DNA from: Escherichia phage HC13 | Sequence record: OL362276.1 | Reading direction: 5' to 3' (one strand) | Length of the DNA stretch: 39,803 bases | Part shown: piece by piece, positions 1-36,901 of the stretch | Position numbering within the stretch: the first letter of the stretch is position 1 | How the letters are laid out: every line of letters begins with the position of its first letter | The notes under the pieces: generated by a model | What the model was told of the DNA's origin: nothing | Database searches by the model: none | The model's input: only the letters and a program-made list of their open reading frames with translations | Translations under genes and position numbers: made by a program

Positions 1-175
1 TCTCACAGTTCAAGAACCTCAAGTCTCCCCATAGGCCCTCTTTCAGTCAGACTCAAGGCCCTACCCCAGTCTATCATAAGGTTGGACCGATGGTCAAGAC
101 GTCAGATCAACGATAGGTTTAGTCTATGGCTTAGGGAAGGACGATAGGTAGGGACTATGGGTCTTCTTTGAGTCT

Positions 176-184
176 CTATCTGTA
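176..184 (+). promoter_or_regulatory. Possible T7-type concatemer-junction pause/termination signal (ATCTGT)
   Basis: Sequence tctATCTGTa lies just upstream of the left-end short-repeat array, the same relative place as the ATCTGTT pause site near the end of the T7 terminal repeat (recollection). Single short motif only. Confidence 0.25.
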
Positions 185-315
185 TAACCATAAGTCACAA
201 CCATAGGTCACAGCCTACCTCTCACAACCATAAGTCATAACCTACAGTCTCACTAACCTACAGTCTCAACCATAAGACACCAACACCTACAGTCATAGAC
301 CTACAGTTAATAGAC
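185..315. repeat. Left-end array of short direct repeats (ACCATAAGTCA / ACCTACAGTC units)
   Basis: Read directly: about ten reiterations of CCATAAGTCA / CCTACAGTC-like units. Analogous to the short repeats that flank the terminal repeat in T7. Confidence 0.6.
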
Positions 316-420
316 ACAAGGCTATAGACTTAAGGTCTAAGACATGTTAGTCAAAGACTATATCCTCTTAGTCACTATGGGGCCGACGATAGCTTAATCA
401 ATATTATTTAAGATTACCTA

Positions 421-452
421 TTGACTACAGGTCCAGACTATGGCTTAATAGC
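421..452 (+). promoter_or_regulatory. Candidate minor host (sigma70) early promoter
   Basis: TTGACT at 421-426 followed about 18 nt later by a weak -10-like TTAATA. Position is homologous to T7 A1, but the -10 is poor. Confidence 0.25.
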
Positions 453-561
453 TTCCGTCAACACGACACGGCAACAACCGGATAGTGAAGACGCCGGGTC
501 ATCCCGGTTAAGTAGACAGCCTGATAAGTCATACGAACAACAGGCAGATGACAGAAAGTAG

Positions 562-598
562 TTGACAAGATGTACCGACTTAAAGTAGTATGTACCAC
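562..598 (+). promoter_or_regulatory. Strong host (sigma70) early promoter, T7 A2/A3-like
   Basis: TTGACA at 562-567, 18-nt spacer, TAGTAT at 586-591, then GTACCACAT. The flanks (CCGGTTAAGTAGACAGCCTGATAAGTC upstream) closely resemble the T7 A2/A3 promoter region as I recall it. Confidence 0.55.
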
Positions 599-708
599 AT
601 CAACACGAAACAACGACCGAAACGGTCTACCTGAAGTCCTCTGACTGAAGGGAATGCTCTTTAACAATCTGGATAAACTCTTAATGTGCGCCGATAGCGA
701 CTAACTAC

Positions 709-751
709 AGGGCCTTTGAGTCTACATCTGAAGGCCCTGACTGATAGTCAC
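709..751 (+). promoter_or_regulatory. Early-leader hairpin plus GACTGATAGTCA element (candidate RNase III site R0.3)
   Basis: AGGGCC (709-714) pairs with GGCCCT (733-738). It is followed by CTGACTGATAGTCAC, and the same GGCC..TGACTGATAGTCA element recurs at 1647-1671 before the next early gene. Confidence 0.35.
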
Positions 752-783
752 TAACACATAATTAACTTTGAGAGGATATAACT

Positions 784-1293
784 ATGGAACGTAATGCTAA
801 CGCATACTATGAGCTGCTGGCTGAAACCGTTGAGGTATTTATCGAGCGTATTCAGTACGACCACCTGACTCAAGATGACGACTACAGCACTGCGCTGCAT
901 GAGGTCGTAGACGGTCAGGTTCCACACTATTACCACGAGATTTTTACGGTGATGGCTGCTGATGGTATAGACAACGAGTTCGAAGACTCTGGGATGATAC
1001 CTGAAACCAAGGACGTAACGCGTATCCTACAAGCTCGCATCTATGAGGCACTTTATAACGACGTGTCTAATAGCTTGGATGTAGTCTGGTTTGAGGATGA
1101 AGAGGCAGACGAAGAGGATGAATATTGGGTAGTTGACGCTAAAACAGGCGCAATAATTGTGCAAGCTGTAGCTCTTGAGGTCGCTACTGCATGTGCCAAG
1201 GTTAACTATGAGGCAGGTCGCCACCTGAAGGTGGAAGACATCAATGATAACGTAGTGTTCGACCCTGCGTCTGCTGAGGAGGACTGCCAGTAA
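784..1293 (+). CDS. 0.3: Ocr-like DNA-mimic anti-restriction protein (gene 0.3) with an extra C-terminal extension
   Basis: 169 aa. Residues about 20-100 ([66 protein letters not shown]) align with T7 Ocr as recalled ([66 protein letters not shown]). SD GAGAGGA upstream. First gene after the early promoters. Confidence 0.85.
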   Translation: [169 protein letters not shown]

Positions 1294-1478
1294 TGAGCAA
1301 GATATACGCAATATACTATGTCGTGCCTAACTCATGGGGAGATGACCACATCCTGCAGGAGCCTTGTTATTATAACGAGGATGAGGCAAAACAGGCACTA
1401 GCGGAAGCCCAAGCGGAAGCCAAAGACCCTTGGTCTGGCGTGTATAAGGCCTACATGGAGGTTATACAAGTTGTCTAA
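1293..1478 (+). CDS. Hypothetical early protein (61 aa)
   Basis: ATG overlaps the Ocr stop (TAATGA). Same-strand early position; no recognisable motif. Confidence 0.5.
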   Translation: MSKIYAIYYVVPNSWGDDHILQEPCYYNEDEAKQALAEAQAEAKDPWSGVYKAYMEVIQVV

Positions 1479-1646
1479 AACTTATGGTCTCTGCCAGCAC
1501 CACGTCACCAACGCCCGGCTTATAGTCAAGACCGGGCGGTTAAACCACGATGCGACTATGCGTCACCTGAAAGCGGTCTACGAGGGCCGCAAGCGTATAC
1601 ACGACAGTTTACACGCTAAGTGACAGACTACAGGTCATCAATGCTG

Positions 1647-1671
1647 GTGGCCTGACTGATAGTCATTAACA
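1647..1671 (+). promoter_or_regulatory. Conserved early 5'-UTR element GGCCTGACTGATAGTCA (candidate RNase III site R0.5)
   Basis: Near-identical to the element at 735-751. Both sit about 35-45 nt upstream of an early start codon. Confidence 0.3.
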
Positions 1672-1686
1672 ACTGAGAGGGAAGAT

Positions 1687-1914
1687 ATGCACACAATCAC
1701 TGGTGCCATAACCAAAGGTTTTCGAGCGATTTTCGGTGAAACGCAAGAAGTATGCACCAATCATAAATTCGTACTTTCTTGCGTAGCAGGTGACGAGTTT
1801 GACGGGTTCGATAAACTGGTGGTTTGCGACCATTGCGGACAAGAGGCTATCCAACACTCAAACGGTAAATTTGAATTAATAGACGATAGCCTTACAGAAG
1901 GAGACGGCGAGTAA
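1687..1914 (+). CDS. Hypothetical early protein (75 aa) with Cys-x2-Cys and possible zinc ribbon
   Basis: SD GAGAGGGAAG upstream of ATG. Contains C..C and CDHC spacing suggestive of a small zinc-binding fold. Confidence 0.5.
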   Translation: MHTITGAITKGFRAIFGETQEVCTNHKFVLSCVAGDEFDGFDKLVVCDHCGQEAIQHSNGKFELIDDSLTEGDGE

Positions 1915-2046
1915 CCTAAATAAACAGGAGAGAACCAAATCATAGCTTGACCATAACACTGACGTGATGGTACTGAGTGATAGACGAGAGGTCATCGACT
2001 GATAGGTGGCCTCAAAGATTACCACTTACATTGATAGGAGTTAACT

Positions 2047-2151
2047 ATGAGCACTGCAATCATCTGGACTATCTCAGGCTTCGTAGCGTGGGGAATGTTT
2101 ACTCTAGTCTGCAAACTACCGGTCCTTACTCAACTGTTATGGGGCTTATGA
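2047..2151 (+). CDS. Small hydrophobic peptide (34 aa)
   Basis: My own translation: MSTAIIWTISGFVAWGMFTLVCKLPVLTQLLWGL. AGGAG six nt upstream of ATG. Too short for the ORF track. Single predicted TM helix. Confidence 0.4.
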   Translation: MSTAIIWTISGFVAWGMFTLVCKLPVLTQLLWGL

Positions 2152-2351
2152 CTATGAGTATCGCACTATTGATAGCCATAGGCTATGGACTTATCGCCTA
2201 CGTGCTGGTGAGAGACATCAACAAAGCGCGTAAAGTCTACAAATTCAACTATGTACGTCTGGGTAGCTGGACTGTACGTCAACCTAACGGACGATTCATG
2301 CGTAACTTAGCGAACGTCTGGGATATAGCAACACTTGGGAGCAAACTGTAA
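2148..2351 (+). CDS. Hypothetical small membrane protein (67 aa)
   Basis: In frame with track ORF 1977..2351, but I start it at the ATG overlapping the upstream stop (ATGA). Hydrophobic N-terminus SIALLIAIGYGLIAYVLV. Start uncertain. Confidence 0.4.
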   Translation: MTMSIALLIAIGYGLIAYVLVRDINKARKVYKFNYVRLGSWTVRQPNGRFMRNLANVWDIATLGSKL

Positions 2352-2677
2352 TGAACAAGTCATACGGGATTAATCTGGTACACTCTATGGACGCAGACAT
2401 GCAAATGTTAAGCCTACTGGCTACCGGGTATCGTCACGGGACGTCAAGTCACTCCGCACGTCAACAGCAGGAGCGGGACCGGGTACTGCAAGCAAGACTC
2501 CGGGCTGAGGGCCATAAGTCCGAACTAATGTGTCTGGCGTATGGTGGACGACCAATCACTGACGATGGTAAACTTTTAGTCTCAGGCTGGAAGGCGATAG
2601 ACCAGCGGTCAACCATCAAGCACACGACTCATGGTGACTTCAGTCATCTCCACGCTAACCCGCTGATATGCAAGTAA
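2351..2677 (+). CDS. Hypothetical early protein (108 aa), occupies the slot of T7 gene 0.7
   Basis: ATG overlaps the previous stop. No kinase motifs. Last ORF before the RNAP gene. Confidence 0.5.
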   Translation: MNKSYGINLVHSMDADMQMLSLLATGYRHGTSSHSARQQQERDRVLQARLRAEGHKSELMCLAYGGRPITDDGKLLVSGWKAIDQRSTIKHTTHGDFSHLHANPLICK

Positions 2678-2682
2678 TTCTG

Positions 2683-2706
2683 ACTTAACTATCACTATAG
2701 GACTCA
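2683..2706 (+). promoter_or_regulatory. Phage RNAP promoter (TTAACTATCACTATAGG, +1 about 2700) upstream of gene 1
   Basis: Matches the 11-copy promoter family in this window. Architecture is that of T7 promoters (..CACTATAG G..). Confidence 0.7.
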
Positions 2707-2774
2707 AGGTCTAAGACTCCAAGTGAAAGACCAAAGAGACTTTAAGTGAAAGACTAATAACAAGGACTTTAAGT

Positions 2775-5456
2775 ATGAGCGTCATCTCTATTGACAAGCA
2801 CGACTTCTCTGATGTGTCGAACGCCATTGAGCCGTTTAACCTACTGGCTGACCACTACGGGCAAGACCTTGCAGTCAAACAGCTTCAGCTTGAGCACGAG
2901 GCATACACTGAAGGCGAGCGACGTTTCATCAAGAACCTTGAGAGACAGACTGAGCGAGGGGAACTGGCAGACAATCAGGTCGCCAAGCCTTTGATGCAGA
3001 CTCTGGTCCCTAAGATTGCGCAAGCCGTCAAGGAGTGGCATGAAGGTCCAGACGGGAAGCTGTCAACCTCTCGTCCTAGCGTAGCGTTCACCGTGTTGAG
3101 CACTGAAGAGAAGGCCGTCAAGGACCGCTCTATGCGCATCTCCTGTGAGTCCGCTGCGGTTATCATACTGAAGGTCATACTCTCCAAGCTGGTCAAGCCT
3201 GAAGGGATACCGATTACACCGATGGCCTCCGCGATAGGTCGCACACTTGAGGACGAAATCCGCTTCGGTCGCATCCGTGACAAAGAGAAAGAGCACTTCA
3301 AGAAGGCGATAGCTGATAACCTGAATAAGCGGGCCGGGGCGTCATACAAGAAAGCCTACATGCAAGCGGTCGAGGCGTCCATGCTGGAGCAAGGCCAACT
3401 GGAAGATGCGTGGGGGACTTGGAGTCCTACAGAGGCTGTCCACGTTGGCATCAAGATGCTCGAGATTGTCATCCAGTCAACACAACTGGTCGAGCTTAAG
3501 CGGTATGGTGCTGGTAATGCAGCGGCTGACGTAGAGATGGTCCACCTGTCAGACTTCTGGGTCAAGAAGATGGCACAACGAGGATTCAGCCTTGCGGGTA
3601 TAGCTCCAGTCTACCAGCCTTGCGTCGTTCCACCTAAGCCGTGGACTGGTGTCGTAGGCGGTGGGTACTGGGCCAAAGGACGCAGACCATTACCACTGAT
3701 TCGCTTAGGGTCTAAGTCTGCGGTAGCACGCTACGAAGACGTGTATATGCCTGAAGTCTATGACGCTGTGAACATCATTCAGAATACACCTTGGAAAGTG
3801 AACAAGAAGGTTCTGGAAGTGGTGAACATGGTCGAGAAGCTGAACAACACGCCTATTGATGACATCCCTCAGATGGAACCGCTGAAGCCTGAGGACTATG
3901 CGGGTGAGACTGAAGAAGAACTCAAGGCATGGAAGAAGGCTGCTGCTGGTATCTATCGCCGCGAGAAGGCCAGACAGTCACGAAGATTGTCACTGAGCTT
4001 TATCGTCAACCAAGCGAACAAGTTCTCTCAGTTCAAGGCCATCTGGTTCCCGTATAACATGGACTGGCGCGGTCGCGTCTACGCTGTGCCGATGTTCAAC
4101 CCTCAGGGTAACGACATGCAAAAGGGTCTTCTGACTCTGGCAGTCGGTAAGCCTATTGGTGCTGATGGTTTCAAATGGCTGAAGGTCCACGGTGCAAACT
4201 GCGCGGGTGTCGATAAAGTCACCTTCGAGGAGCGTATCAAGTGGGTGGAAGATAACCACGACAACATCATGGCTGCTGCCAATGCACCGATGGATAGCAT
4301 TGAGTGGTGGGGCAAGTTAGACTCTCCGTTCTGCTTCCTAGCGTTCTGCTTCGAGTATGCTGGCGTAATGCACCACGGCTTGTCTTACTCCTGCTCGCTG
4401 CCGATAGCGTTCGATGGGTCCTGCTCTGGGATTCAGCACTTCAGCGCTATGCTTCGCGACCACATCGGTGGACATGCAGTAAACCTGACGCCATCCGGTA
4501 AGGTCCAAGACATCTACCGCATCGTGTCTGACCGCATTGAGGAGGAGCTTAAAGTCCTACTGGTTAACGGTACGGACAACGAGATGGTAACTCACGAGGA
4601 CAAGAAAACTGGTGAGATTACCGAGCGTCTCAAGCTGGGGACACGAGAGCTTGCCCGTCAGTGGCTGACCTACGGTATGTCACGAAAGGTCACTAAGCGT
4701 TCGGTCATGACTCTGGCCTACGGGTCGAAAGAGTACGGCTTCGCAGACCAAGTTTACGAGGACATCGTGATGCCAGCGATTGACTCAGGGTCTGGCGCTA
4801 TGTTCACTGAACCAAGCCAAGCATCTCGCTTCATGGCTAAGATGATTTGGGAAGCTGTGAGTGTGACCGTAGTTGCTGCGGTTGACGCGATGAAATGGCT
4901 TCAGGGTGCTGCCAAGCTGCTTGCTGCTGAAGTGAAGGACAAGAAGACTGGAGAAATCCTGAAGCCTTGTCTTCCGGTACACTGGGTCACACCTGATGGT
5001 TTCCCTGTCTGGCAGGAATACCGCAAGAAGGACACCACTCGTCTGAACCTGATGTTCTTAGGGTCATTCAACCTTCAGCCTACCGTCAACAAAGGCACGA
5101 AGAAAGAGCTGGACAAGCACAAGCAGGAGTCAGGCATTAGCCCGAACTTCGTCCACTCACAAGATGGTAGCCACCTGCGGAAGACTGTAGTCCACACTCA
5201 CCGCAAGTATGGCGTGATGTCATTCGCAGTGATTCACGATAGCTTCGGGACCATCCCTGCTGACGCTGAGTATCTGTTCCGTGGTGTCCGTGAGACGATG
5301 GTCGAGACATACCGCGATAACGATGTGCTGCTTGACTTCTACGAGCAGTTTGAATACCAGCTTCATGAAAGCCAGCGCGACAAGTTGCCTGAGCTTCCGA
5401 AGAAAGGTAAACTGAATATCGAAGACATCTTGTCTTCAGACTTTGCATTCGCTTAA
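2775..5456 (+). CDS. 1: Single-subunit DNA-directed RNA polymerase (T7 gene 1 homologue)
   Basis: 893 aa, aligns end to end with T7 RNAP as recalled (ANQFKAIWFPYNMDWRGRVYA, HGANCAGVDK, DGSCSGIQHFSAM, KRSVMTLAYGS, NFVHSQDGSHLR, IHDSFGT, C-terminal SDFAFA). Confidence 0.97.
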   Translation: MSVISIDKHDFSDVSNAIEPFNLLADHYGQDLAVKQLQLEHEAYTEGERRFIKNLERQTERGELADNQVAKPLMQTLVPKIAQAVKEWHEGPDGKLSTSRPSVAFTVLSTEEKAVKDRSMRISCESAAVIILKVILSKLVKPEGIPITPMASAIGRTLEDEIRFGRIRDKEKEHFKKAIADNLNKRAGASYKKAYMQAVEASMLEQGQLEDAWGTWSPTEAVHVGIKMLEIVIQSTQLVELKRYGAGNAAADVEMVHLSDFWVKKMAQRGFSLAGIAPVYQPCVVPPKPWTGVVGGGYWAKGRRPLPLIRLGSKSAVARYEDVYMPEVYDAVNIIQNTPWKVNKKVLEVVNMVEKLNNTPIDDIPQMEPLKPEDYAGETEEELKAWKKAAAGIYRREKARQSRRLSLSFIVNQANKFSQFKAIWFPYNMDWRGRVYAVPMFNPQGNDMQKGLLTLAVGKPIGADGFKWLKVHGANCAGVDKVTFEERIKWVEDNHDNIMAAANAPMDSIEWWGKLDSPFCFLAFCFEYAGVMHHGLSYSCSLPIAFDGSCSGIQHFSAMLRDHIGGHAVNLTPSGKVQDIYRIVSDRIEEELKVLLVNGTDNEMVTHEDKKTGEITERLKLGTRELARQWLTYGMSRKVTKRSVMTLAYGSKEYGFADQVYEDIVMPAIDSGSGAMFTEPSQASRFMAKMIWEAVSVTVVAAVDAMKWLQGAAKLLAAEVKDKKTGEILKPCLPVHWVTPDGFPVWQEYRKKDTTRLNLMFLGSFNLQPTVNKGTKKELDKHKQESGISPNFVHSQDGSHLRKTVVHTHRKYGVMSFAVIHDSFGTIPADAEYLFRGVRETMVETYRDNDVLLDFYEQFEYQLHESQRDKLPELPKKGKLNIEDILSSDFAFA

Positions 5457-5471
5457 CAGGAGGAGAAGTAT

Positions 5472-5702
5472 ATGTCAATGAAACTTGTAGCACACAACAG
5501 AGTATTCAACGATGGGTCGGGACGTTGCCATGTAGAGCTGACTTATAAGGATTTAATCATTCTCCGAGACAGATTACAGTCGGGTGTGACTGGGTGGATT
5601 CAACCTAACGAGTACAACCTTATAGCTTCGATTGATGAAGTTCTTAACGCGTGGATGGAAGACGAGCGAATTCAGTATCCGTCATTCCCTCTAATTAGAT
5701 AA
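5472..5702 (+). CDS. Hypothetical protein (76 aa)
   Basis: Strong SD AGGAGGAG upstream. Sits between gene 1 and 1.1; no recognisable motif. Confidence 0.5.
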   Translation: MSMKLVAHNRVFNDGSGRCHVELTYKDLIILRDRLQSGVTGWIQPNEYNLIASIDEVLNAWMEDERIQYPSFPLIR

Positions 5703-5712
5703 GGAGAGAGTT

Positions 5713-5928
5713 ATGAAATTTGCACACAAGCATACTGGCGTTAATGGTGGGACTCAAATCGTGACCGTAACAGAACACAACGGCAAGGGTATGGTGAAGA
5801 CCACGGTCATACCTACCGAGATGTCCAAGCAGCTTAACATCCCGTTCAAGACTCTTGTATATCTGGTCGAGTCCAGCCACGAGAAGTACCTGAAGGACGC
5901 AGTGTCCAAGCTGGAGCAGGCCAAATGA
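5713..5928 (+). CDS. Hypothetical protein (71 aa)
   Basis: SD AAGGAGAG upstream of ATG. No recognisable motif. Confidence 0.5.
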   Translation: MKFAHKHTGVNGGTQIVTVTEHNGKGMVKTTVIPTEMSKQLNIPFKTLVYLVESSHEKYLKDAVSKLEQAK

Positions 5929-6002
5929 CAGACATACAGTTACTGGCCCTGTGGCTGGGAGCACTCGCAGTATTCACTTTAATCCAACGCAGAAGAGGTT
6001 AA
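5925..6002 (+). CDS. Small hydrophobic peptide (25 aa)
   Basis: My own translation: MTDIQLLALWLGALAVFTLIQRRRG. ATG overlaps the upstream stop (ATGA). Very short, speculative. Confidence 0.25.
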   Translation: MTDIQLLALWLGALAVFTLIQRRRG

Positions 6003-6003
6003 C

Positions 6004-6027
6004 CCTAAACTATCACTATAGGATTAG
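6004..6027 (+). promoter_or_regulatory. Phage RNAP promoter (TAAACTATCACTATAGG, +1 about 6021)
   Basis: Promoter-family match. Position equals T7 phi1.1. Confidence 0.75.
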
Positions 6028-6070
6028 ACTCAAGGTCATGACTCAAAGTCGTGGCCTTCATGATTAACCC
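6022..6070 (+). promoter_or_regulatory. Putative RNase III processing hairpin (R1.1-like)
   Basis: Conserved UAGACUCAAGGUCAU ... GUGGCCUUCAUGAUUAA. Upper stem AAGGUCAU pairs with GUGGCCUU; internal loop and lower stem as in the hairpins at 13150 and 36801. Confidence 0.45.
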
Positions 6071-6099
6071 TAAATAAACACTACTGGAGATTTAACCGT

Positions 6100-6279
6100 A
6101 TGTATCAGAACACTATCAACTTCGAGCGCATCCGTGAACGTCAGCAGACTGAAGGTTACATCCCTAAGGGCCGCAAGCTGAACAAGACTAAACGTGGCGG
6201 TGGCATCAAAGGTGCTTTCCGTAATGCTGAAGGTAAAGACTCTCTGGTCAACCAAGAGAAATACTTCGTAGGAGCATAA
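6100..6279 (+). CDS. 1.1: Gene 1.1-like small basic protein (59 aa)
   Basis: My own translation contains KGRKLNKTKR, matching T7 gp1.1 as recalled. Below the ORF-track size cutoff. Confidence 0.6.
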   Translation: MYQNTINFERIRERQQTEGYIPKGRKLNKTKRGGGIKGAFRNAEGKDSLVNQEKYFVGA

Positions 6280-6283
6280 CCAA

Positions 6284-6547
6284 ATGGGCCGACTTTATAG
6301 TGGCAACCTCAACGCTTTCAAATCAGCGTGCAACAGGCTCTATCAGTTAGACTTAGCTGTTATATCTCAGGAGTTTCAAGACCATGTGTCAAGCCAAGAG
6401 TGCATGAAACTCAGGGTGGAGGACCGAGCCGGTAACATCTTCGCGCTTGAGACCTTCGCACACTACGATGAAGACGTGCTGTATAATACCGCAACCGACT
6501 ACCTCAACGGTCTCGCTGACCATCTCGACACATGGAGCAAAGAATAA
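6284..6547 (+). CDS. 1.2: gp1.2, inhibitor of host dGTP triphosphohydrolase
   Basis: MGRLYSGNLNAFKSA...LDLAVI...RVEDRAGN...HYDEDVLYN aligns with T7 gp1.2 (MGRLYSGNLAAFKAA...). Confidence 0.85.
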   Translation: MGRLYSGNLNAFKSACNRLYQLDLAVISQEFQDHVSSQECMKLRVEDRAGNIFALETFAHYDEDVLYNTATDYLNGLADHLDTWSKE

Positions 6548-7593
6548 TGACAACTATCAAAACTAACCCTCACCGCGCTGTAGATTACTCTGAGTCTGGA
6601 ATTAAGAAGGCACTGGAAGCAGCCGGGTCTCTGGAAGCTGAAGTGAAGTACGATGGTGTGCGCCTGAACCTCCTGGTCCTGCGTGAAGGTGAGACCTACT
6701 GGCTTAGCCGCGAGTCGAAACCTCTACCAGCCTTGGAGTGGATGAACTCTGAGTTAGGTAATGCGTGGACCCAAGCTGACTGGCGATGGTTCCTGCGTCA
6801 ATCCGGCTACGAAGGTGTGGGCATGATGATTGATGGCGAGGTCATGGTCAAAGGTGTAGACTTCAACACCTCCTCAGGTCTCATCCGAACGAAGTGGCTC
6901 AAGCCTAACAACGAGGAGTTCGCTGAATACTATTCGCCGGCGACTGGTGGAAAGAAGCTCCCGTTCTGGGGATCCCGGTCACGACTTCAGGTTGTGGTCT
7001 ACGGTGTCATCGACATGACAACCATTGCTGACCCGAAAGCCGAAGGTCCTATCCATAGCGTCACACGCCTGAAGGCCGAAGCTATCGTCCCTCTCCTCCA
7101 GAAATACTTCCCGGAAATCGACTGGGCTCTGTCTGAGTCACACACGGTCTATGACCTTGAGTCGCTCAACTCCCTGTACGAACAGAAGCGTCTGGAAGGA
7201 CACGAGGGTCTGGTAGTCAAGGACCCACTGGGTAAATATAAGCGTGGCAAGAAGTCAGGCATGTGGAAGATGAAGCCTGAGGAGACCATCGACGGGACCG
7301 TGTGTGGTCTCGTGTGGGGGACTCATGGTAAGGCTAACGAGGGCAAGGTCATCGGCTTCGAGGTTCTGCTTGAGGATGGCATGGTGGTTAACGCCTGTGG
7401 TCTGACTGAAGAACAGAAGGCTGAGTTTACGGAAGCCTGTAACACTGATACATATATTCTCGGTGGAATCAATCCATACGAAGGCTGGCAGTGTGAAGTG
7501 CTATTCATGGAGCGGTTCCCTGATGGCTCTCTTCGTCACCCTAGCTTCAAGTGCTGGCGTGGAACGGAAGACAATCCAACCGTTAAGAGCTAA
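6547..7593 (+). CDS. 1.3: ATP-dependent DNA ligase (gene 1.3)
   Basis: Aligns with T7 ligase: catalytic Lys motif EVKYDGVR, EGHEGLVVKDP, KSGMWKMKPE, C-terminal SLRHPSF. I prefer the ATG at 6547 (MTTIKTNP..., matching T7 MMNIKTNP); the track ORF begins at 6532. Confidence 0.93.
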   Translation: MTTIKTNPHRAVDYSESGIKKALEAAGSLEAEVKYDGVRLNLLVLREGETYWLSRESKPLPALEWMNSELGNAWTQADWRWFLRQSGYEGVGMMIDGEVMVKGVDFNTSSGLIRTKWLKPNNEEFAEYYSPATGGKKLPFWGSRSRLQVVVYGVIDMTTIADPKAEGPIHSVTRLKAEAIVPLLQKYFPEIDWALSESHTVYDLESLNSLYEQKRLEGHEGLVVKDPLGKYKRGKKSGMWKMKPEETIDGTVCGLVWGTHGKANEGKVIGFEVLLEDGMVVNACGLTEEQKAEFTEACNTDTYILGGINPYEGWQCEVLFMERFPDGSLRHPSFKCWRGTEDNPTVKS

Positions 7594-7603
7594 CTAAATG
7601 TCA

Positions 7604-7645
7604 ACCCAGTGGTCTTCGCGGACTGCTGGGTTTCTTTGCTTTGTG
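7604..7645 (+). terminator. Early (host RNAP) intrinsic terminator TE
   Basis: ACCCAGUGGUC / GGACUGCUGGGU hairpin (about 11 bp with two G-U pairs) followed by UUUCUUUGCUUUG. Same position as T7 TE, immediately after ligase. Confidence 0.6.
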
Positions 7646-7678
7646 CTAGCAAGCTATCGTCTGGGCCACCAGTTAGAC

Positions 7679-7702
7679 CCTAAGCTATCACTATAGGACA
7701 AC
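7679..7702 (+). promoter_or_regulatory. Phage RNAP promoter (TAAGCTATCACTATAGG, +1 about 7696)
   Basis: Promoter-family match, one mismatch in the upstream part. Confidence 0.7.
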
Positions 7703-7725
7703 CATCAACAACCAAAGGAGACTCT

Positions 7726-7986
7726 ATGTCTAAGAACTTAATGTTCAACCGTTATACCGATACCTTCCACCTGTCTAACAACCCGTTCGCTTGCATTAAG
7801 CGCAACGAGAAGCTGGGATACTTCGGGAAGGCCGTTAAGCTGTCACCTACAGTCTATGCTCTGATTACTCACGGCAAAGCTGAAGAGGCTCGCCAGAAGC
7901 GTGAGACCGACGTACCTGTGGTATACACCAAGTGGCCTCGCGTTCGTCTGTTTATTGAGTTCGTGAAGGAGGTGATCAATGGTTAA
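7726..7986 (+). CDS. Hypothetical protein, positional equivalent of T7 gene 1.6
   Basis: 86 aa, good SD (AAAGGAG). Assignment is by position only. Confidence 0.5.
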   Translation: MSKNLMFNRYTDTFHLSNNPFACIKRNEKLGYFGKAVKLSPTVYALITHGKAEEARQKRETDVPVVYTKWPRVRLFIEFVKEVING

Positions 7987-8422
7987 GGTGGGGGATACAG
8001 TTAACTATGTTGGACCAGTTGGAGCGCACGCGGGACGCTCCTGTGGCAAGGTGATATTGGTCAAGAATGAGCATGTAGCTGTTGTTAAGTGGCCCCGTTT
8101 ATCTGAACCACTCACTCACTCCATTAGTTCCTTAAGTATTACCAAGCAGGCGCAGTCCGAGCCGACAACCATAGGTCAGGAAGATAGCGTCCGTAAGCCA
8201 TCTCACTATCAGGTCTTTGACGGCGTGGAGTCCATTGAGATTATCGCTCGGTCCATGACTGTCAGTGAGTTCCGTGGCTTCTGCATGGGTAACGTCCTTA
8301 AGTATCGACTCCGGGCTGGTAAGAAGTCAGAGCTGGCGACTATGGAGAAGGACCTGAACAAAGCAGCCTTCTATCAGGAGCTGTTCGACCTACATAAAGG
8401 TAAGTGCTATGCTTCCGAGTGA
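7979..8422 (+). CDS. 1.7: gp1.7-like protein (T7 nucleotide kinase homologue, divergent N-terminus)
   Basis: C-terminal 75 aa (KPSHYQVFDGVESIEIIARSMTVSEFRGFCMGNVLKYRLRAGKKSELATMEKDLNKAAFYQELF) aligns with the T7 gp1.7 C-terminus as recalled. The N-terminal half is shorter and unrelated. Confidence 0.7.
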   Translation: MVKVGDTVNYVGPVGAHAGRSCGKVILVKNEHVAVVKWPRLSEPLTHSISSLSITKQAQSEPTTIGQEDSVRKPSHYQVFDGVESIEIIARSMTVSEFRGFCMGNVLKYRLRAGKKSELATMEKDLNKAAFYQELFDLHKGKCYASE

Positions 8423-13149: not shown

Positions 13150-13195
13150 GTCTAGACTCAAGGTCATTCACAGCGAGTGGCCTTTATGATTAGAC
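13150..13195 (+). promoter_or_regulatory. Putative RNase III processing hairpin (R4.7-like)
   Basis: Lower stem GUCUAG pairs with UUAGAC, internal loop, upper stem AAGGUCAU pairs with GUGGCCUU, 9-nt loop. Same family as 6022 and 36801. Confidence 0.45.
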
Positions 13196-13212
13196 TAAAG
13201 CGGAGGATTAAC

Positions 13213-13644: not shown

Positions 13645-15808
13645 TCTCAACTCATTCTATGGCACAGATATAGAGACTGACGGTCTACTAGACACTGTGT
13701 CACAGTTCCATTGTGGTGTTATCATTAACGCCGGAACTCAGGCTACTGAGAAATATGGTGTTGCCCCTATGACTGGGCTGACAGGTGGATTCAAAGAGTA
13801 CATAGACCGCATAGAATCTATTATGGCATCCACTGACGGTATGCTGGTTCTGCACAATGGTGTGAACTATGATATACCAGCCTTGAAAATACTGAAGAAG
13901 AAATACTTTGGTAAGAACCTAAATGTGAATAAGGGTCGAATTATTGATACCTTGGTGCTGGGACGCTTGATGTATCCAAACATTAAGTTCTCAGACATGG
14001 GCGCGGTGAAAGCTGGTCGTCTGCCTCCTAAGATGATGGGACGCCAGTCTCTTGAGGCTTGGGGTTATCGTCTCGGTGAGATGAAGGGTGAGTACAAACA
14101 CGATTACGTTGCCAAGTGCAAGGCAGAAGGTATCGAATATAAGGCTGGGGACGAATGGTTGTTCCCATCTCAGGAGATGCTGGACTATAACGTTCAAGAC
14201 GTTGTGGTCACACTGGCGTTGTTCAAGAAGTTCCTGACTGACAAGTATTACTTCCAGTCTGAACAGTTCGCTTTCGAACAGATTTATGCGTTGCGTCTGG
14301 AACATGATGCTGCGTGGACCTGTGCGAAGATGGAGCGTAACGGCTATCCGATGAACACCGAGATGGTCGAAGGCTTATATCGTGAACTCACTGTCAAACG
14401 TGCTGAGTTGCTGGACAAGCTGCGTTCGACTTTCGGCAGCTGGTACGCACCAAAGGGAGGCAAGGAGTTCTTCAAGCACCCACGGACAGGCAAGGACCTC
14501 CCGAAGTATCCGCGAGTCGTGTACCCTAAGGTCGGGTCAGTATTCAAGAAGCCGAAGAACAAAGCTCAACGCTTAGGTCTGGAACCTTGCGAGTTCGACT
14601 CACGAGACACGATGAAGGGAGCACCGTTCACACCTATCACTTACGTTGAGTTTAATCCGGGAAGCGGAGACCACTTAGCGAAAGTCCTGATGGAGCGTGG
14701 CTGGGAGCCTGTGGACTTCACTGACACCGGGAAACCTGTAGTCGATGACGAGACGTTAGAACACGTTAAGTTACCAGACGCAGAGGCTCAGGCTTGCGTA
14801 GAGCTGGTCCGTGAGTATCTGGTAGTCCAGAAGAGAATCGGGCAGGCTGCTGAAGGTAAGAACGCTTGGTTGAAACTTGTAGGTCCAGACGGACGTATGC
14901 ACGGTTCAATCAACCCATGTGGTGCAGTAACCGGACGTGCGACTCATAGTTCACCAAACATGGCTCAGGTCCCGGCTAACGGTGCTCCATACGGTGAGAC
15001 TTGCCGTGGTGCTTTCGGTGCAGCGTGGAACAAGAAGGACGGTAAGCCAGACCCTTGGATTCAAGTAGGTGTGGATGCCTCAGGTCTTGAGCTTCGTTGT
15101 CTTGGGAACAGAGCGGCTCCGTTTGATGGTGGTGCCTATGCGAAGACTGTGGTCGAAGGTGACATCCACTGGGCCAACGCAGTAAACGCTGGGTTAGCAC
15201 CTAACGTCCAACGCGATAAGTCTAACCACGACCATGAGGCTTTCCGTAACAACGCTAAGACGTTCATCTACGCGTTCCTGTATGGTGCAGGGGCCGCTAA
15301 GATTGGACTGATAGTAGGCGGTGGTAAGAAGGAAGGTTCAGCGCTCATGAAGAAATTCATTGAGGGTACACCAGCTATCAAGGACCTCAGGGAAGCTGTG
15401 CAGAACACGCTCATCTCTGAGTCCAAATGGGTAGACGGTGAGAACATCGTGAAGTGGAAACGCCGCTGGCTGAAAGGTCTGGACGGTCGACGCATCCACA
15501 TCCGGTCGCCACACTCAGCACTGAACGCCTTACTTCAGGGTGATGGTGCGGTAGTCTGTAAGCACTGGATTGTTGAGACTGAACGTATGCTTGAAGCCGA
15601 AGGATATGTCCACGGCTGGGATGGAGACTTTGCGTACATGGCATGGGTGCACGATGAGCTACAAATTGCCTGTAAAAACAAGGACTTAGCAGAACGCGTA
15701 GTAGAAATTGCTCAACTTGCTATGCGTAAGGTTGGTGAGTTCTATAACTTTAAATGTGTGTTAGACACGGAGGGTAAAATTGGACCAACGTGGAAAGAAT
15801 GCCATTGA
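13637..15808 (+). CDS. 5: DNA polymerase (gene 5, family A)
   Basis: Collinear with T7 gp5 (exo motif DIETDG, FHCGVI, EAWGYRLGEMKGEYK, YNVQDVVVT, GAVTGRATH, NAKTFIYAFLYGAG, YMAWVHDE, C-terminal WKECH). Start overlaps the HNH stop by 8 nt. Confidence 0.97.
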   Translation: MFNLNSFYGTDIETDGLLDTVSQFHCGVIINAGTQATEKYGVAPMTGLTGGFKEYIDRIESIMASTDGMLVLHNGVNYDIPALKILKKKYFGKNLNVNKGRIIDTLVLGRLMYPNIKFSDMGAVKAGRLPPKMMGRQSLEAWGYRLGEMKGEYKHDYVAKCKAEGIEYKAGDEWLFPSQEMLDYNVQDVVVTLALFKKFLTDKYYFQSEQFAFEQIYALRLEHDAAWTCAKMERNGYPMNTEMVEGLYRELTVKRAELLDKLRSTFGSWYAPKGGKEFFKHPRTGKDLPKYPRVVYPKVGSVFKKPKNKAQRLGLEPCEFDSRDTMKGAPFTPITYVEFNPGSGDHLAKVLMERGWEPVDFTDTGKPVVDDETLEHVKLPDAEAQACVELVREYLVVQKRIGQAAEGKNAWLKLVGPDGRMHGSINPCGAVTGRATHSSPNMAQVPANGAPYGETCRGAFGAAWNKKDGKPDPWIQVGVDASGLELRCLGNRAAPFDGGAYAKTVVEGDIHWANAVNAGLAPNVQRDKSNHDHEAFRNNAKTFIYAFLYGAGAAKIGLIVGGGKKEGSALMKKFIEGTPAIKDLREAVQNTLISESKWVDGENIVKWKRRWLKGLDGRRIHIRSPHSALNALLQGDGAVVCKHWIVETERMLEAEGYVHGWDGDFAYMAWVHDELQIACKNKDLAERVVEIAQLAMRKVGEFYNFKCVLDTEGKIGPTWKECH

Positions 15809-18262: not shown

Positions 18263-18685
18263 ATGCTACCATATCTCAACTCACGCGAAGGTCGCCACAT
18301 GTGCGCTTGTCTCCTCTGGGAAGACGGGCAGTCTAACTTCAAGTCATTCGAGGACTTCAAGGCTCATACTTACCGTATGGCTGACGAGTTCGAGGGTGAA
18401 GAGTACACAATCTACGATGTCTCAGGCCAACCAGTAGCGTATCTCTACATGCTGGCTACCACATCTTGGCACCGACCGACTCCCGGTCTTGACCTTTCAA
18501 TAGTCGCTATTCGTCGTGACTCGCAGTCCTCCCGCAAGGTTCTTGAGACTGTCAGACACATCATAGACGAAGAGTGCAAGCGTTGGGGTCTGGGCTGGTA
18601 TTCTCGTGTCAAGCATGTTTCCGGGTCGGTAGACATCGTAACAACCAAGTGCGTTAGCACGAACAAGGAGATTAATCGTGGGTAA
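18263..18685 (+). CDS. gp7-like protein (host-range / virion protein)
   Basis: 140 aa, positional equivalent of T7 gene 7. Start uncertain (weak SD). Confidence 0.5.
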   Translation: MLPYLNSREGRHMCACLLWEDGQSNFKSFEDFKAHTYRMADEFEGEEYTIYDVSGQPVAYLYMLATTSWHRPTPGLDLSIVAIRRDSQSSRKVLETVRHIIDEECKRWGLGWYSRVKHVSGSVDIVTTKCVSTNKEINRG

Positions 18686-36800: not shown

Positions 36801-36855
36801 GTGTTAGACTCAAGGTCATTACTGTATGTAGTGGCCTTTATGGTTAACACTAACT
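36801..36855 (+). promoter_or_regulatory. Putative RNase III processing hairpin (R18.5-like)
   Basis: GUGUUAGAC...AAGGUCAU / GUGGCCUU...GGUUAACAC. Same upper stem as 6022 and 13150; lower stem differs but still pairs (covariation). Confidence 0.45.
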
Positions 36856-36901
36856 AGTGGAGGAGACTCTACGTGAAATCTGATAAACCGGGAGGGCAAC
36901 T

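Follow-up and report, generated by a model that had tools for sequence, protein, structure and literature searches.

RNase III substrates span about two helical turns and require at least 11 bp between the cut and the loop, and their internal loops restrict the enzyme to one phosphodiester in one strand, leaving a 3′ hairpin that protects against 3′-5′ exonucleases (PMC1540722). The standard substrates, phage T7 R1.1 and its derivatives, are irregular two-turn hairpins in which the internal loop limits cleavage to one strand (PMC1540722). The record of phage T3 annotates stem-loops named R0.3, R0.5, R1, R1.1, and R1.3 as 'RNase III recognition site'. We analyzed the early region of Escherichia phage HC13 (sequence record OL362276.1; the whole stretch of 39,803 nucleotides is called the window, and positions refer to it unless another phage is named). 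In an earlier note, a motif repeated there before successive early genes was proposed to be a recurring processing or translation-control cassette of the polycistronic early mRNA, similar to R0.3 and R0.5 of T7, and homology and structure support the processing part of this proposal. The motif belongs to three hairpins, A (697-755), B (1620-1670), and C (1977-2029), all on the + strand, which are very probably host RNase III processing signals of the rightward early transcript, orthologous to R0.3 and R0.5 of T7 and T3. This class of site has long been known, and the sites are unannotated in Kayfunavirus records.

The first 3 kb of the window are 97% identical to Kayfunavirus genomes (LM33_P1 and HC12) and 92% identical to phage K1F. 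Therefore, we take the window to be the complete genome of a K1F-like Kayfunavirus, a member of the T7 subfamily Studiervirinae.

Three hairpins and their T7 and T3 counterparts

Site A resembles R0.3 of T7 and T3 in position and fold. Both follow host promoters and lie 30-40 nt before the start of gene 0.3, both have a lower stem, an internal loop with 4 nt on the 5′ side and 5 nt on the 3′ side, and an upper stem of about 10 bp, and both share the flanks TAACU..(C/A)AGGG...CCCU...GAU...UCACUAA. They differ in the 3′ internal-loop strand (ACUGA in A, UAUGA in T7 R0.3), in the closing pair (C-G in A, A-U in T7), and in the apical part, which is a 12-bp bulged stem with a 7-nt loop in A but 9 bp with a 4-nt loop in R0.3. 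Sites B and C are colinear with R0.5, which follows 0.4 in T7 and 0.3 in T3, through (C)UGAGUGAUAGAC..AGGUC...GUGGCCU...GAUUA.CACUU, and window positions 1973-2030 are almost colinear with the T7 R0.5 region (CTGAGTGATAGAC..AGGTC..TGGCCT..GATTA.CACTT). Just as the TGA stop codon of 0.4 (T7 1431-1433) lies inside the R0.5 hairpin, the TGA stop codon of 0.35 (1621-1623) lies within the 5′ arm of B. R0.5 is single in T7 and T3, whereas HC13 has two copies that bracket an inserted gene; B carries an A-type 3′ strand (CCUGACUGAUAGUCA), while C has CCUCAAAGAUUACCA and the loop GACUGAUA. A site before gene 0.7 of Klebsiella phage phi1_146013 is also colinear with B. By position and sequence, we regard A as the R0.3 orthologue and B and C as two R0.5-type copies.

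In the predicted folds, the general anatomy is a lower stem of about 7-10 bp, an internal loop of 4 nt and 5 nt on its two sides, an upper stem of 9-12 bp, and a loop. Aligned to the covariance model described below, A, B, and C have 7+10 pairs with the 4/5 internal loop, and the stems and internal loop are modelled to stack to about two helical turns. Site A, the R0.3-type hairpin, has the lower stem GCGACUA/UAGUCAC, the internal loop ACUA/ACUGA, and the upper stem 708-719/727-739 (−25.6 kcal/mol, z −4.7). Site B, directly after 0.35, has the upper stem CAGGUCAUCA/UGGUGGCCUG with the loop AUGC (−18.9 kcal/mol, z −2.1), and site C, which precedes a 34-aa open reading frame (ORF) with its ATG at 2047, has the upper stem GAGGUCAUC/GGUGGCCUC (z −2.8). 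The hairpins end 29, 17, and 18 nt before the ATG, respectively. Each copy of the motif sits in a predicted hairpin, and one correction applies: in A and B, the hairpin is about 55 nt long and the motif is modelled as no more than its 3′ half, comprising the 3′ strand of the internal loop and lower stem. Within the motif, the upper stem is closed by CCUG, the internal loop has ACUGA on its 3′ side, and UAGUCA is part of the lower stem.

The repeat itself is longer than first described. The 21-mer CCTGACTGATAGTCA(C/T)TAACA occurs at 736-756 and 1651-1671, ungapped and identical at 20 of 21 positions, and ACTACAGG, upstream of the 21-mer, is also common to both copies. The two main copies had been placed at 735-751 and 1647-1671; they are present, 1-2 nt away, as GGCCCTGACTGATAGTCA at 733-750 (copy 1, in A) and GGCCTGACTGATAGTCA at 1649-1665 (copy 2, in B). 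Genome-wide, 16 pairs of 21-mers differ by at most one mismatch; 15 of them are phage promoters and the other is the 736/1651 pair. Since dinucleotide shuffles (n = 100) contain a mean of only 0.02 such pairs per genome, the repeat exceeds chance.

A third, related motif had been reported at about 1997-2012. This copy, CGACTGATAGGTGGCC at 1996-2011, has only the 9-mer GACTGATAG in common with the other two. The 9-mer recurrence is real, since it is found four times genome-wide where 0.5 occurrences are expected, and three of these lie in hairpins A, B, and C, but the positions are not equivalent. Copy 3 spans the apical loop of C and part of its 3′ upper strand, and its 9-mer falls in that loop; the 9-mer of copies 1 and 2 instead forms the 3′ side of the internal loop and lower stem. 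Copy 3 as a diverged 3′-arm element was rejected because of this location. The 9-mer is absent from the equivalent hairpins of two relatives (loci L006 and L008) and of T7 R0.5; in another relative (L009, 1208-1260) it is found both in the loop and in the 3′ arm.

The earlier note had also described a common motif and a start codon downstream of each copy. An ATG does follow all three, with TTGAGAGGA at 768-776 and ATG at 784 after copy 1, ACTGAGAGG at 1672-1680 and ATG at 1687 after copy 2, and TTGATAGGAG at 2031-2040 and ATG at 2047 after copy 3; the distances from motif start to ATG are 51, 38, and 51 nt. GAGAGG follows copies 1 and 2 but not copy 3. The Shine-Dalgarno (SD) region of copy 2 is part of a module common to Kagunavirus phages, and its likeness to the 0.3 leader is probably mere SD similarity. 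The shared GAGAGG after A and B was considered as part of the cassette and is doubtful, as the SD of B arrives with the Kagunavirus-like module.

Over its 17 nt, the shared 3′ arm TGACTGATAGTCA(C/T)TAA (738-754 and 1653-1669) has a stop in every reading frame (TGA, TGA-TAG, and TAA). A tandem TGA-TAG is also carried by the 5′ arms of site C and T7 R0.5 (GAGTGATAGAC). As a possible stop-codon cassette TGATAG is not enriched, with 9 occurrences genome-wide against 10.9 expected.

We considered whether the recurrence could be chance, or whether the hairpins could be terminators or attenuators of the host RNA polymerase. A 15-nt exact repeat alone is, by a rough and uncomputed estimate, about the chance yield of a 40-kb genome, and the three hairpins are fairly G+C-rich; the shuffles above speak against chance for the 21-mer. 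The terminator scan reported no candidate at any of these hairpins, and no T-run lies 3′ of any of them (the sequences directly after them are CACTAACACA, TTAACAACTG, and CACTTACATT), while the scan gave an early candidate at 7603-7632. With the covariation described below, the shuffles and the scan refute both explanations, to which we give practically no probability. An Rfam scan of window positions 1-8000 with E up to 10 returned no relevant match, the sole match being a chance snoRNA on the minus strand; a family for these sites appears to be missing from Rfam.

Conserved pairing in early and late sites

For comparison, 41 IMG/VR loci were fetched via their ocr genes, so that their selection was independent of RNA. 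The 100 nt upstream of ocr take the same predicted fold in T7 and in almost all 41 loci, despite widely differing stem sequences; only L040, the most divergent locus, departs from it. Twelve of the hairpins that precede ocr, T7 R0.3 and site A among them, were used to build a covariance model, and both strands of the window were searched with filters off. There were six significant matches, all on the + strand, and an SD and a start codon come after each of them. Site A scored 59 bits (14 bits on its reverse strand), B 41.3 bits, and C 40.6 bits; T7 R0.5 and T3 R0.5 scored 43 and 40 bits.

The other three matches are an R1.1-type site at 6021-6074 (27.4 bits, fold z −4.5), which begins at the end of the phage promoter 6002-6023 and precedes an ORF at 6100, and two sites in the late region. 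The one at 13150-13199 (32.3 bits) has a T7-like CCUUUAUGAU strand with an SD and ATG downstream, and the one at 36801-36854 (49.3 bits) is at a similar genome coordinate to the T7 match 36819-36869. Since the same model matches these three sites, the early and late hairpins are one family, contrary to the earlier suggestion that the early elements stand apart from the late hairpins. The main differences are in the 3′ internal-loop strand (CCUUUAUGAU in late sites, CCUGACUGAU or CCUCAAAGAU in early ones) and in the closing pair of the upper stem. The later sites carry a T7-like CCUU(U/C)AUG(A/G)U strand.

The T7 records we examined have no RNase III site annotation, and the annotated T3 stem-loops therefore served as the control. 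The model recovered all five annotated early T3 sites, R1 by a weak partial match. In T7, it matched 855-903, 1430-1482, 5850-5902, 13856-13910, 18504-18576, and 36819-36869, with weak partial matches at 3114-3138 and 6421-6446. These eight matches agree with what we take to be the positions of eight of the ten T7 RNase III sites (R0.3 at 890, R0.5 at 1468, R1 at 3138, R1.1 at 5887, R1.3 at 6448, R4.7 at 13892, and R18.5 at 36856, with R6.5 assigned to the match 18504-18576; Dunn and Studier 1983). An R1 equivalent before HC13 gene 1 gave no model match, and 2699-2780 folds like shuffled sequence (z −0.15); a phage promoter (2681-2702) precedes gene 1 in place of an R1-type hairpin. Another observation in T3 is an unannotated 23.5-bit match at 86-138 in the terminal repeat, over the −10 box (126-131) of the leftward A0 promoter, which may be chance or a relic.

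Phages K1F and EcoDS1 have three matches each (K1F 710-768, 1033-1085, and 1769-1821; EcoDS1 904-962, 1493-1545, and 6051-6104), all unannotated in their records and 88-98% identical to the window's sites. Site C is 94-98% identical to the K1F and EcoDS1 sites after gene 0.35. K1F has two A-type sites, before 0.2 and 0.3, and a single R0.5-type site following gp0.35, while HC13 has no gene 0.2 and two R0.5-type sites instead. In some relatives, two or three A-type cassettes follow one another, with a small gene (0.1, 0.2, or 0.3) after each, as in L009 (853-911, 1208-1260, and 1525-1577) and at the first two K1F sites. In the EcoDS1 RefSeq record, an ORF of 'unknown product' (1493-1636) begins on the R0.5-type hairpin and may be an over-call.

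To assess covariation, we aligned 57 matches (51 distinct) with E ≤ 0.001 from the window and the 41 loci, all 57 of which are on the gene strand. Paired cells made up 94.2%, a figure somewhat inflated as the alignment was fitted to the model, against 29-47% when the partners were slid by 1-3 columns. Compensatory double changes were present in 11 of 17 pairs. The covariation score was 0.575, compared with at most 0.094 in the slid controls and 0.227 in shuffles, and none of 500 shuffles reached the observed value. As an independent check, B, C, the K1F site, T7 R0.5, T3 R0.5, and the Klebsiella phage site were aligned plainly with MAFFT and folded with RNAalifold, which also gave 10 bp, a 4+5 loop, and 10 bp, with five compensatory pairs. 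Moreover, an IMG/VR pattern scan found the upper stem of B joined to at least 7 different lower-stem sequence pairs that still pair, and a B-type upper stem precedes unrelated genes in T7-like contigs (ocr, a SAMase-like gene, the 0.7 kinase, and gene 1). Because G.U pairs account for about 14% of cells and site A scores so much lower on its reverse strand, the constraint acts on the sense RNA rather than on DNA.

Predicted cleavage and its products

The T7 sites are presumably cut after UUUAU, just before GAU (Rosenberg and Kramer 1977; Dunn and Studier 1983). The T7 coordinates 890 and 1468 given above both fall on the U preceding GAU in the T7 sequence, which supports this placement. In HC13, GAU is at 743-745, 1658-1660, and 2017-2019, aligned with the T7 GAU at 891-893 and 1469-1471. 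E. coli RNase III would thus be expected to cut once, directly before the conserved GAU on the 3′ side of the internal loop, and alignment to the T7 UAU/GAU junction places the predicted cuts between U742 and G743 in A, between U1657 and G1658 in B, and between A2016 and G2017 in C. These positions are 12-15 positions from the loops.

Four products would result: a leader fragment with its 3′ end at 742, an mRNA of 743-1657 for 0.3, a 61-aa ORF, and 0.35, a monocistronic mRNA of 1658-2016 for a 75-aa gene, and an mRNA from 2017 with the small genes and gene 1. The upper hairpin would stay on the 3′ end of each upstream product and protect it from 3′ exonucleases, and the downstream products would gain defined short leaders before the ribosome-binding site, of 41 nt (ocr), 29 nt (75-aa ORF), and 30 nt (34-aa ORF). 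We infer cleavage, the exact cuts, and the effects on stability and translation from the alignment with T7.

Across the 51 distinct members of the alignment, the upper stem always has A-U or U-A as its second pair and never G-C, and G-C is a known antideterminant in the proximal box of RNase III. If the mapping from the minimal substrate holds, the second pair would fit this antideterminant. On the same mapping, an A-U second pair would be shared with T7 R1.1, from which the HC13 sites differ by a variant internal loop and a G-C closing pair.

Several points weigh against RNase III processing at these sites, besides the inflated pairing percentage mentioned above. Site B is the weakest of the three hairpins; its lower stem, in the register of the family, has an A.A mismatch and two G.U pairs, and its minimum-energy fold uses another lower-stem register. 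A recognisable 0.7 kinase was not found in HC13, and in T7 this kinase stimulates RNase III. We found no experimental transcript ends for HC13 or any Kayfunavirus in the literature. A full-text literature search on RNase III with K1F or Kayfunavirus found nothing specific, the K1F genome paper not being covered. Finally, the upper-stem closing pair is C-G or G-C in the HC13 sites but A-U in T7. In minimal substrates, catalysis can be reduced by G-C pairs close to the scissile bond (PMC1540722), so that the efficiency or rate of cleavage may differ from that in T7.

These closing pairs could also favor a different explanation, in which the hairpins are uncut mRNA structures, either leaders that tune translation or stabilisers bound without cleavage by RNase III or another protein. 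C-G and G-C are possible catalytic antideterminants in minimal substrates (PMC1540722), and binding of RNase III without cutting is known for some motifs (PMC1540722, PMC3867540). From a 200-nt precursor to the processed leader, the partition-function estimate of unpaired SD rises from 0.24 to 0.61 for A and from 0.28 to 0.73 for B, which is weak evidence, as long-range fold predictions are; for C, SD exposure is unchanged by processing. The hairpins, however, end short of the SD and do not include it, A, B, and C are colinear with the RNase III sites annotated in T3 and with T7 R0.3 and R0.5, and the GAU after the predicted cut is retained in all three. T7 R0.3 and R0.5 are cleaved sites. We consider uncut structures improbable, and RNase III processing remains our reading of the three sites.

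A weaker reading concerns the lineage-specific internal loop, ACUGA or AAAGA in the early sites against UAUGA in the late ones, which might tune early and late cleavage in a phage without the 0.7 kinase.

The main value of the sites is for annotation, as the Kayfunavirus records of K1F, EcoDS1, and LM33_P1 (a phage studied for therapy) leave them unmarked, and in at least one record an annotated ORF begins on such a site. They give the likely mature early mRNAs and their leaders, which would be useful for engineering K1F-type phages and for reading RNA sequencing data.

Gene cassettes around the sites

Comparison with K1F indicates how two R0.5-type sites may have arisen. In pairwise BLAST, K1F 1765-1804 aligns both to 1616-1653 (B) and to 1973-2010 (C), and a Kagunavirus-like cassette lies between the two; thus, B and C are best read as two copies of one ancestral R0.5-type site, split by the insertion of a foreign cassette. 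The duplication would have come with this cassette, through recombination within the R0.5-type site. The 5′ arm and upper stem of B are R0.5-type and only its 3′ arm is A-like, resembling the K1F R0.3 site; B as a plain duplicate of A was therefore rejected. The reiteration of the motif would thus have two sources, the family resemblance that RNase III sites show to one another and the traffic of cassettes through them.

The inserted cassette (1671-1940, + strand), bracketed by B and C, consists of a leader with its SD, the 75-aa ORF (1687-1914, + strand), and a trailer. It begins one base after B and is 90% identical at the nucleotide level to Kagunavirus siphophage vB_EcoS_SCS44 over 271 nt. 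Gene, SD, and trailer (compared at locus L048, 606-873) share this 90% identity with Kagunavirus siphophages, namely vB_EcoS_SCS44, Bas75, and BUCT825, and the cassette is absent from K1F and EcoDS1. In SCS44, the 75-aa gene has its own sigma-70-like promoter and the trailer carries the SD of the next gene. The trailer in the window retains that SD without the ORF, which suggests transfer from a siphophage to a podophage. The 75-aa protein belongs to PHROG 32657 (unknown function) and has four cysteines, including a CxxC.

When the window is compared with K1F and EcoDS1, homology breaks off within the sites (755/736, 1617-1653, and 1968-1973). The K1F gene 0.2 cassette is absent from the window, with its endpoints in the 3′ arm common to the two A-type sites of K1F. 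Directly after C, the 34-aa ORF (2047-2151) takes the place of K1F gp0.36.

The repeats might be mainly DNA-level joints for recombination in early cassette swaps, with the RNA hairpin secondary. The breakpoints and the Kagunavirus-like cassette starting right after B fit such joints, as does the occurrence of the same upper stem before unrelated genes in other T7-like contigs. We nevertheless regard this explanation as very unlikely. The compensatory changes and frequent G.U pairs show selection for a fold of the sense-strand RNA, and all matches are on one strand. Pairing is kept while the stem sequence varies, the opposite of a conserved primary sequence with lost pairing. Recombination at conserved functional sequences is an expected by-product that would not replace the RNA function. 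With RNase III processing kept as their function, the sites may double as recombination joints for the gain and loss of early cassettes in T7-like phages, a tentative idea that we think somewhat doubtful. If it is true, a captured gene automatically gains a processed 5′ end and a protective 3′ hairpin. The coincidence of the sites with mosaic breakpoints, and their bracketing of a siphophage-derived gene, give a concrete view of how early accessory genes are slotted into T7-like genomes; this link between cassette junctions and processing sites is the only mildly novel thread here.

The remaining features of the early region are the following. A candidate host sigma-70 early promoter at 562-591 on the + strand (TTGACA-18-TAGTAT), a consensus match at 10 of 12 positions, is at the place where the EcoDS1 record annotates three host promoters, and from it site A would fall in the 5′ leader of the early transcript. 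The genes that follow are ocr/0.3 (784-1293), the 61-aa ORF between 0.3 and 0.35 (1293-1478), which has no PHROG or Pfam match, and the homologue of K1F gp0.35 (1471-1623), which has a TTG start 10 nt after GGAGG where K1F has an ATG. After the 75-aa ORF come the small ORFs (2047-2677), the first of which is the 34-aa ORF, the phage promoter before gene 1, and gene 1 itself (2775-5456). The terminator-like hairpin with a T-run at 7603-7632 on the + strand follows a ligase-sized ORF; T7 TE is annotated after gene 1.3, and by analogy the HC13 hairpin likely ends the early transcription unit.

Two further features were observed in this region. Inside the 0.35 coding sequence, a G+C-rich hairpin (CGCCCGG..CCGGGCG, 1512-1538, z −2.9) has no T-run, and K1F has it too with one loop change. 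After the promoter at 2681-2702, two 21-nt direct repeats, AGACT(C/T)(C/T)AAGTGAAAGAC(C/T)AA, lie at 2714-2734 and 2737-2757, and the 17-mer GACTCAAGGTCTAAGAC recurs at 327-343 as well.

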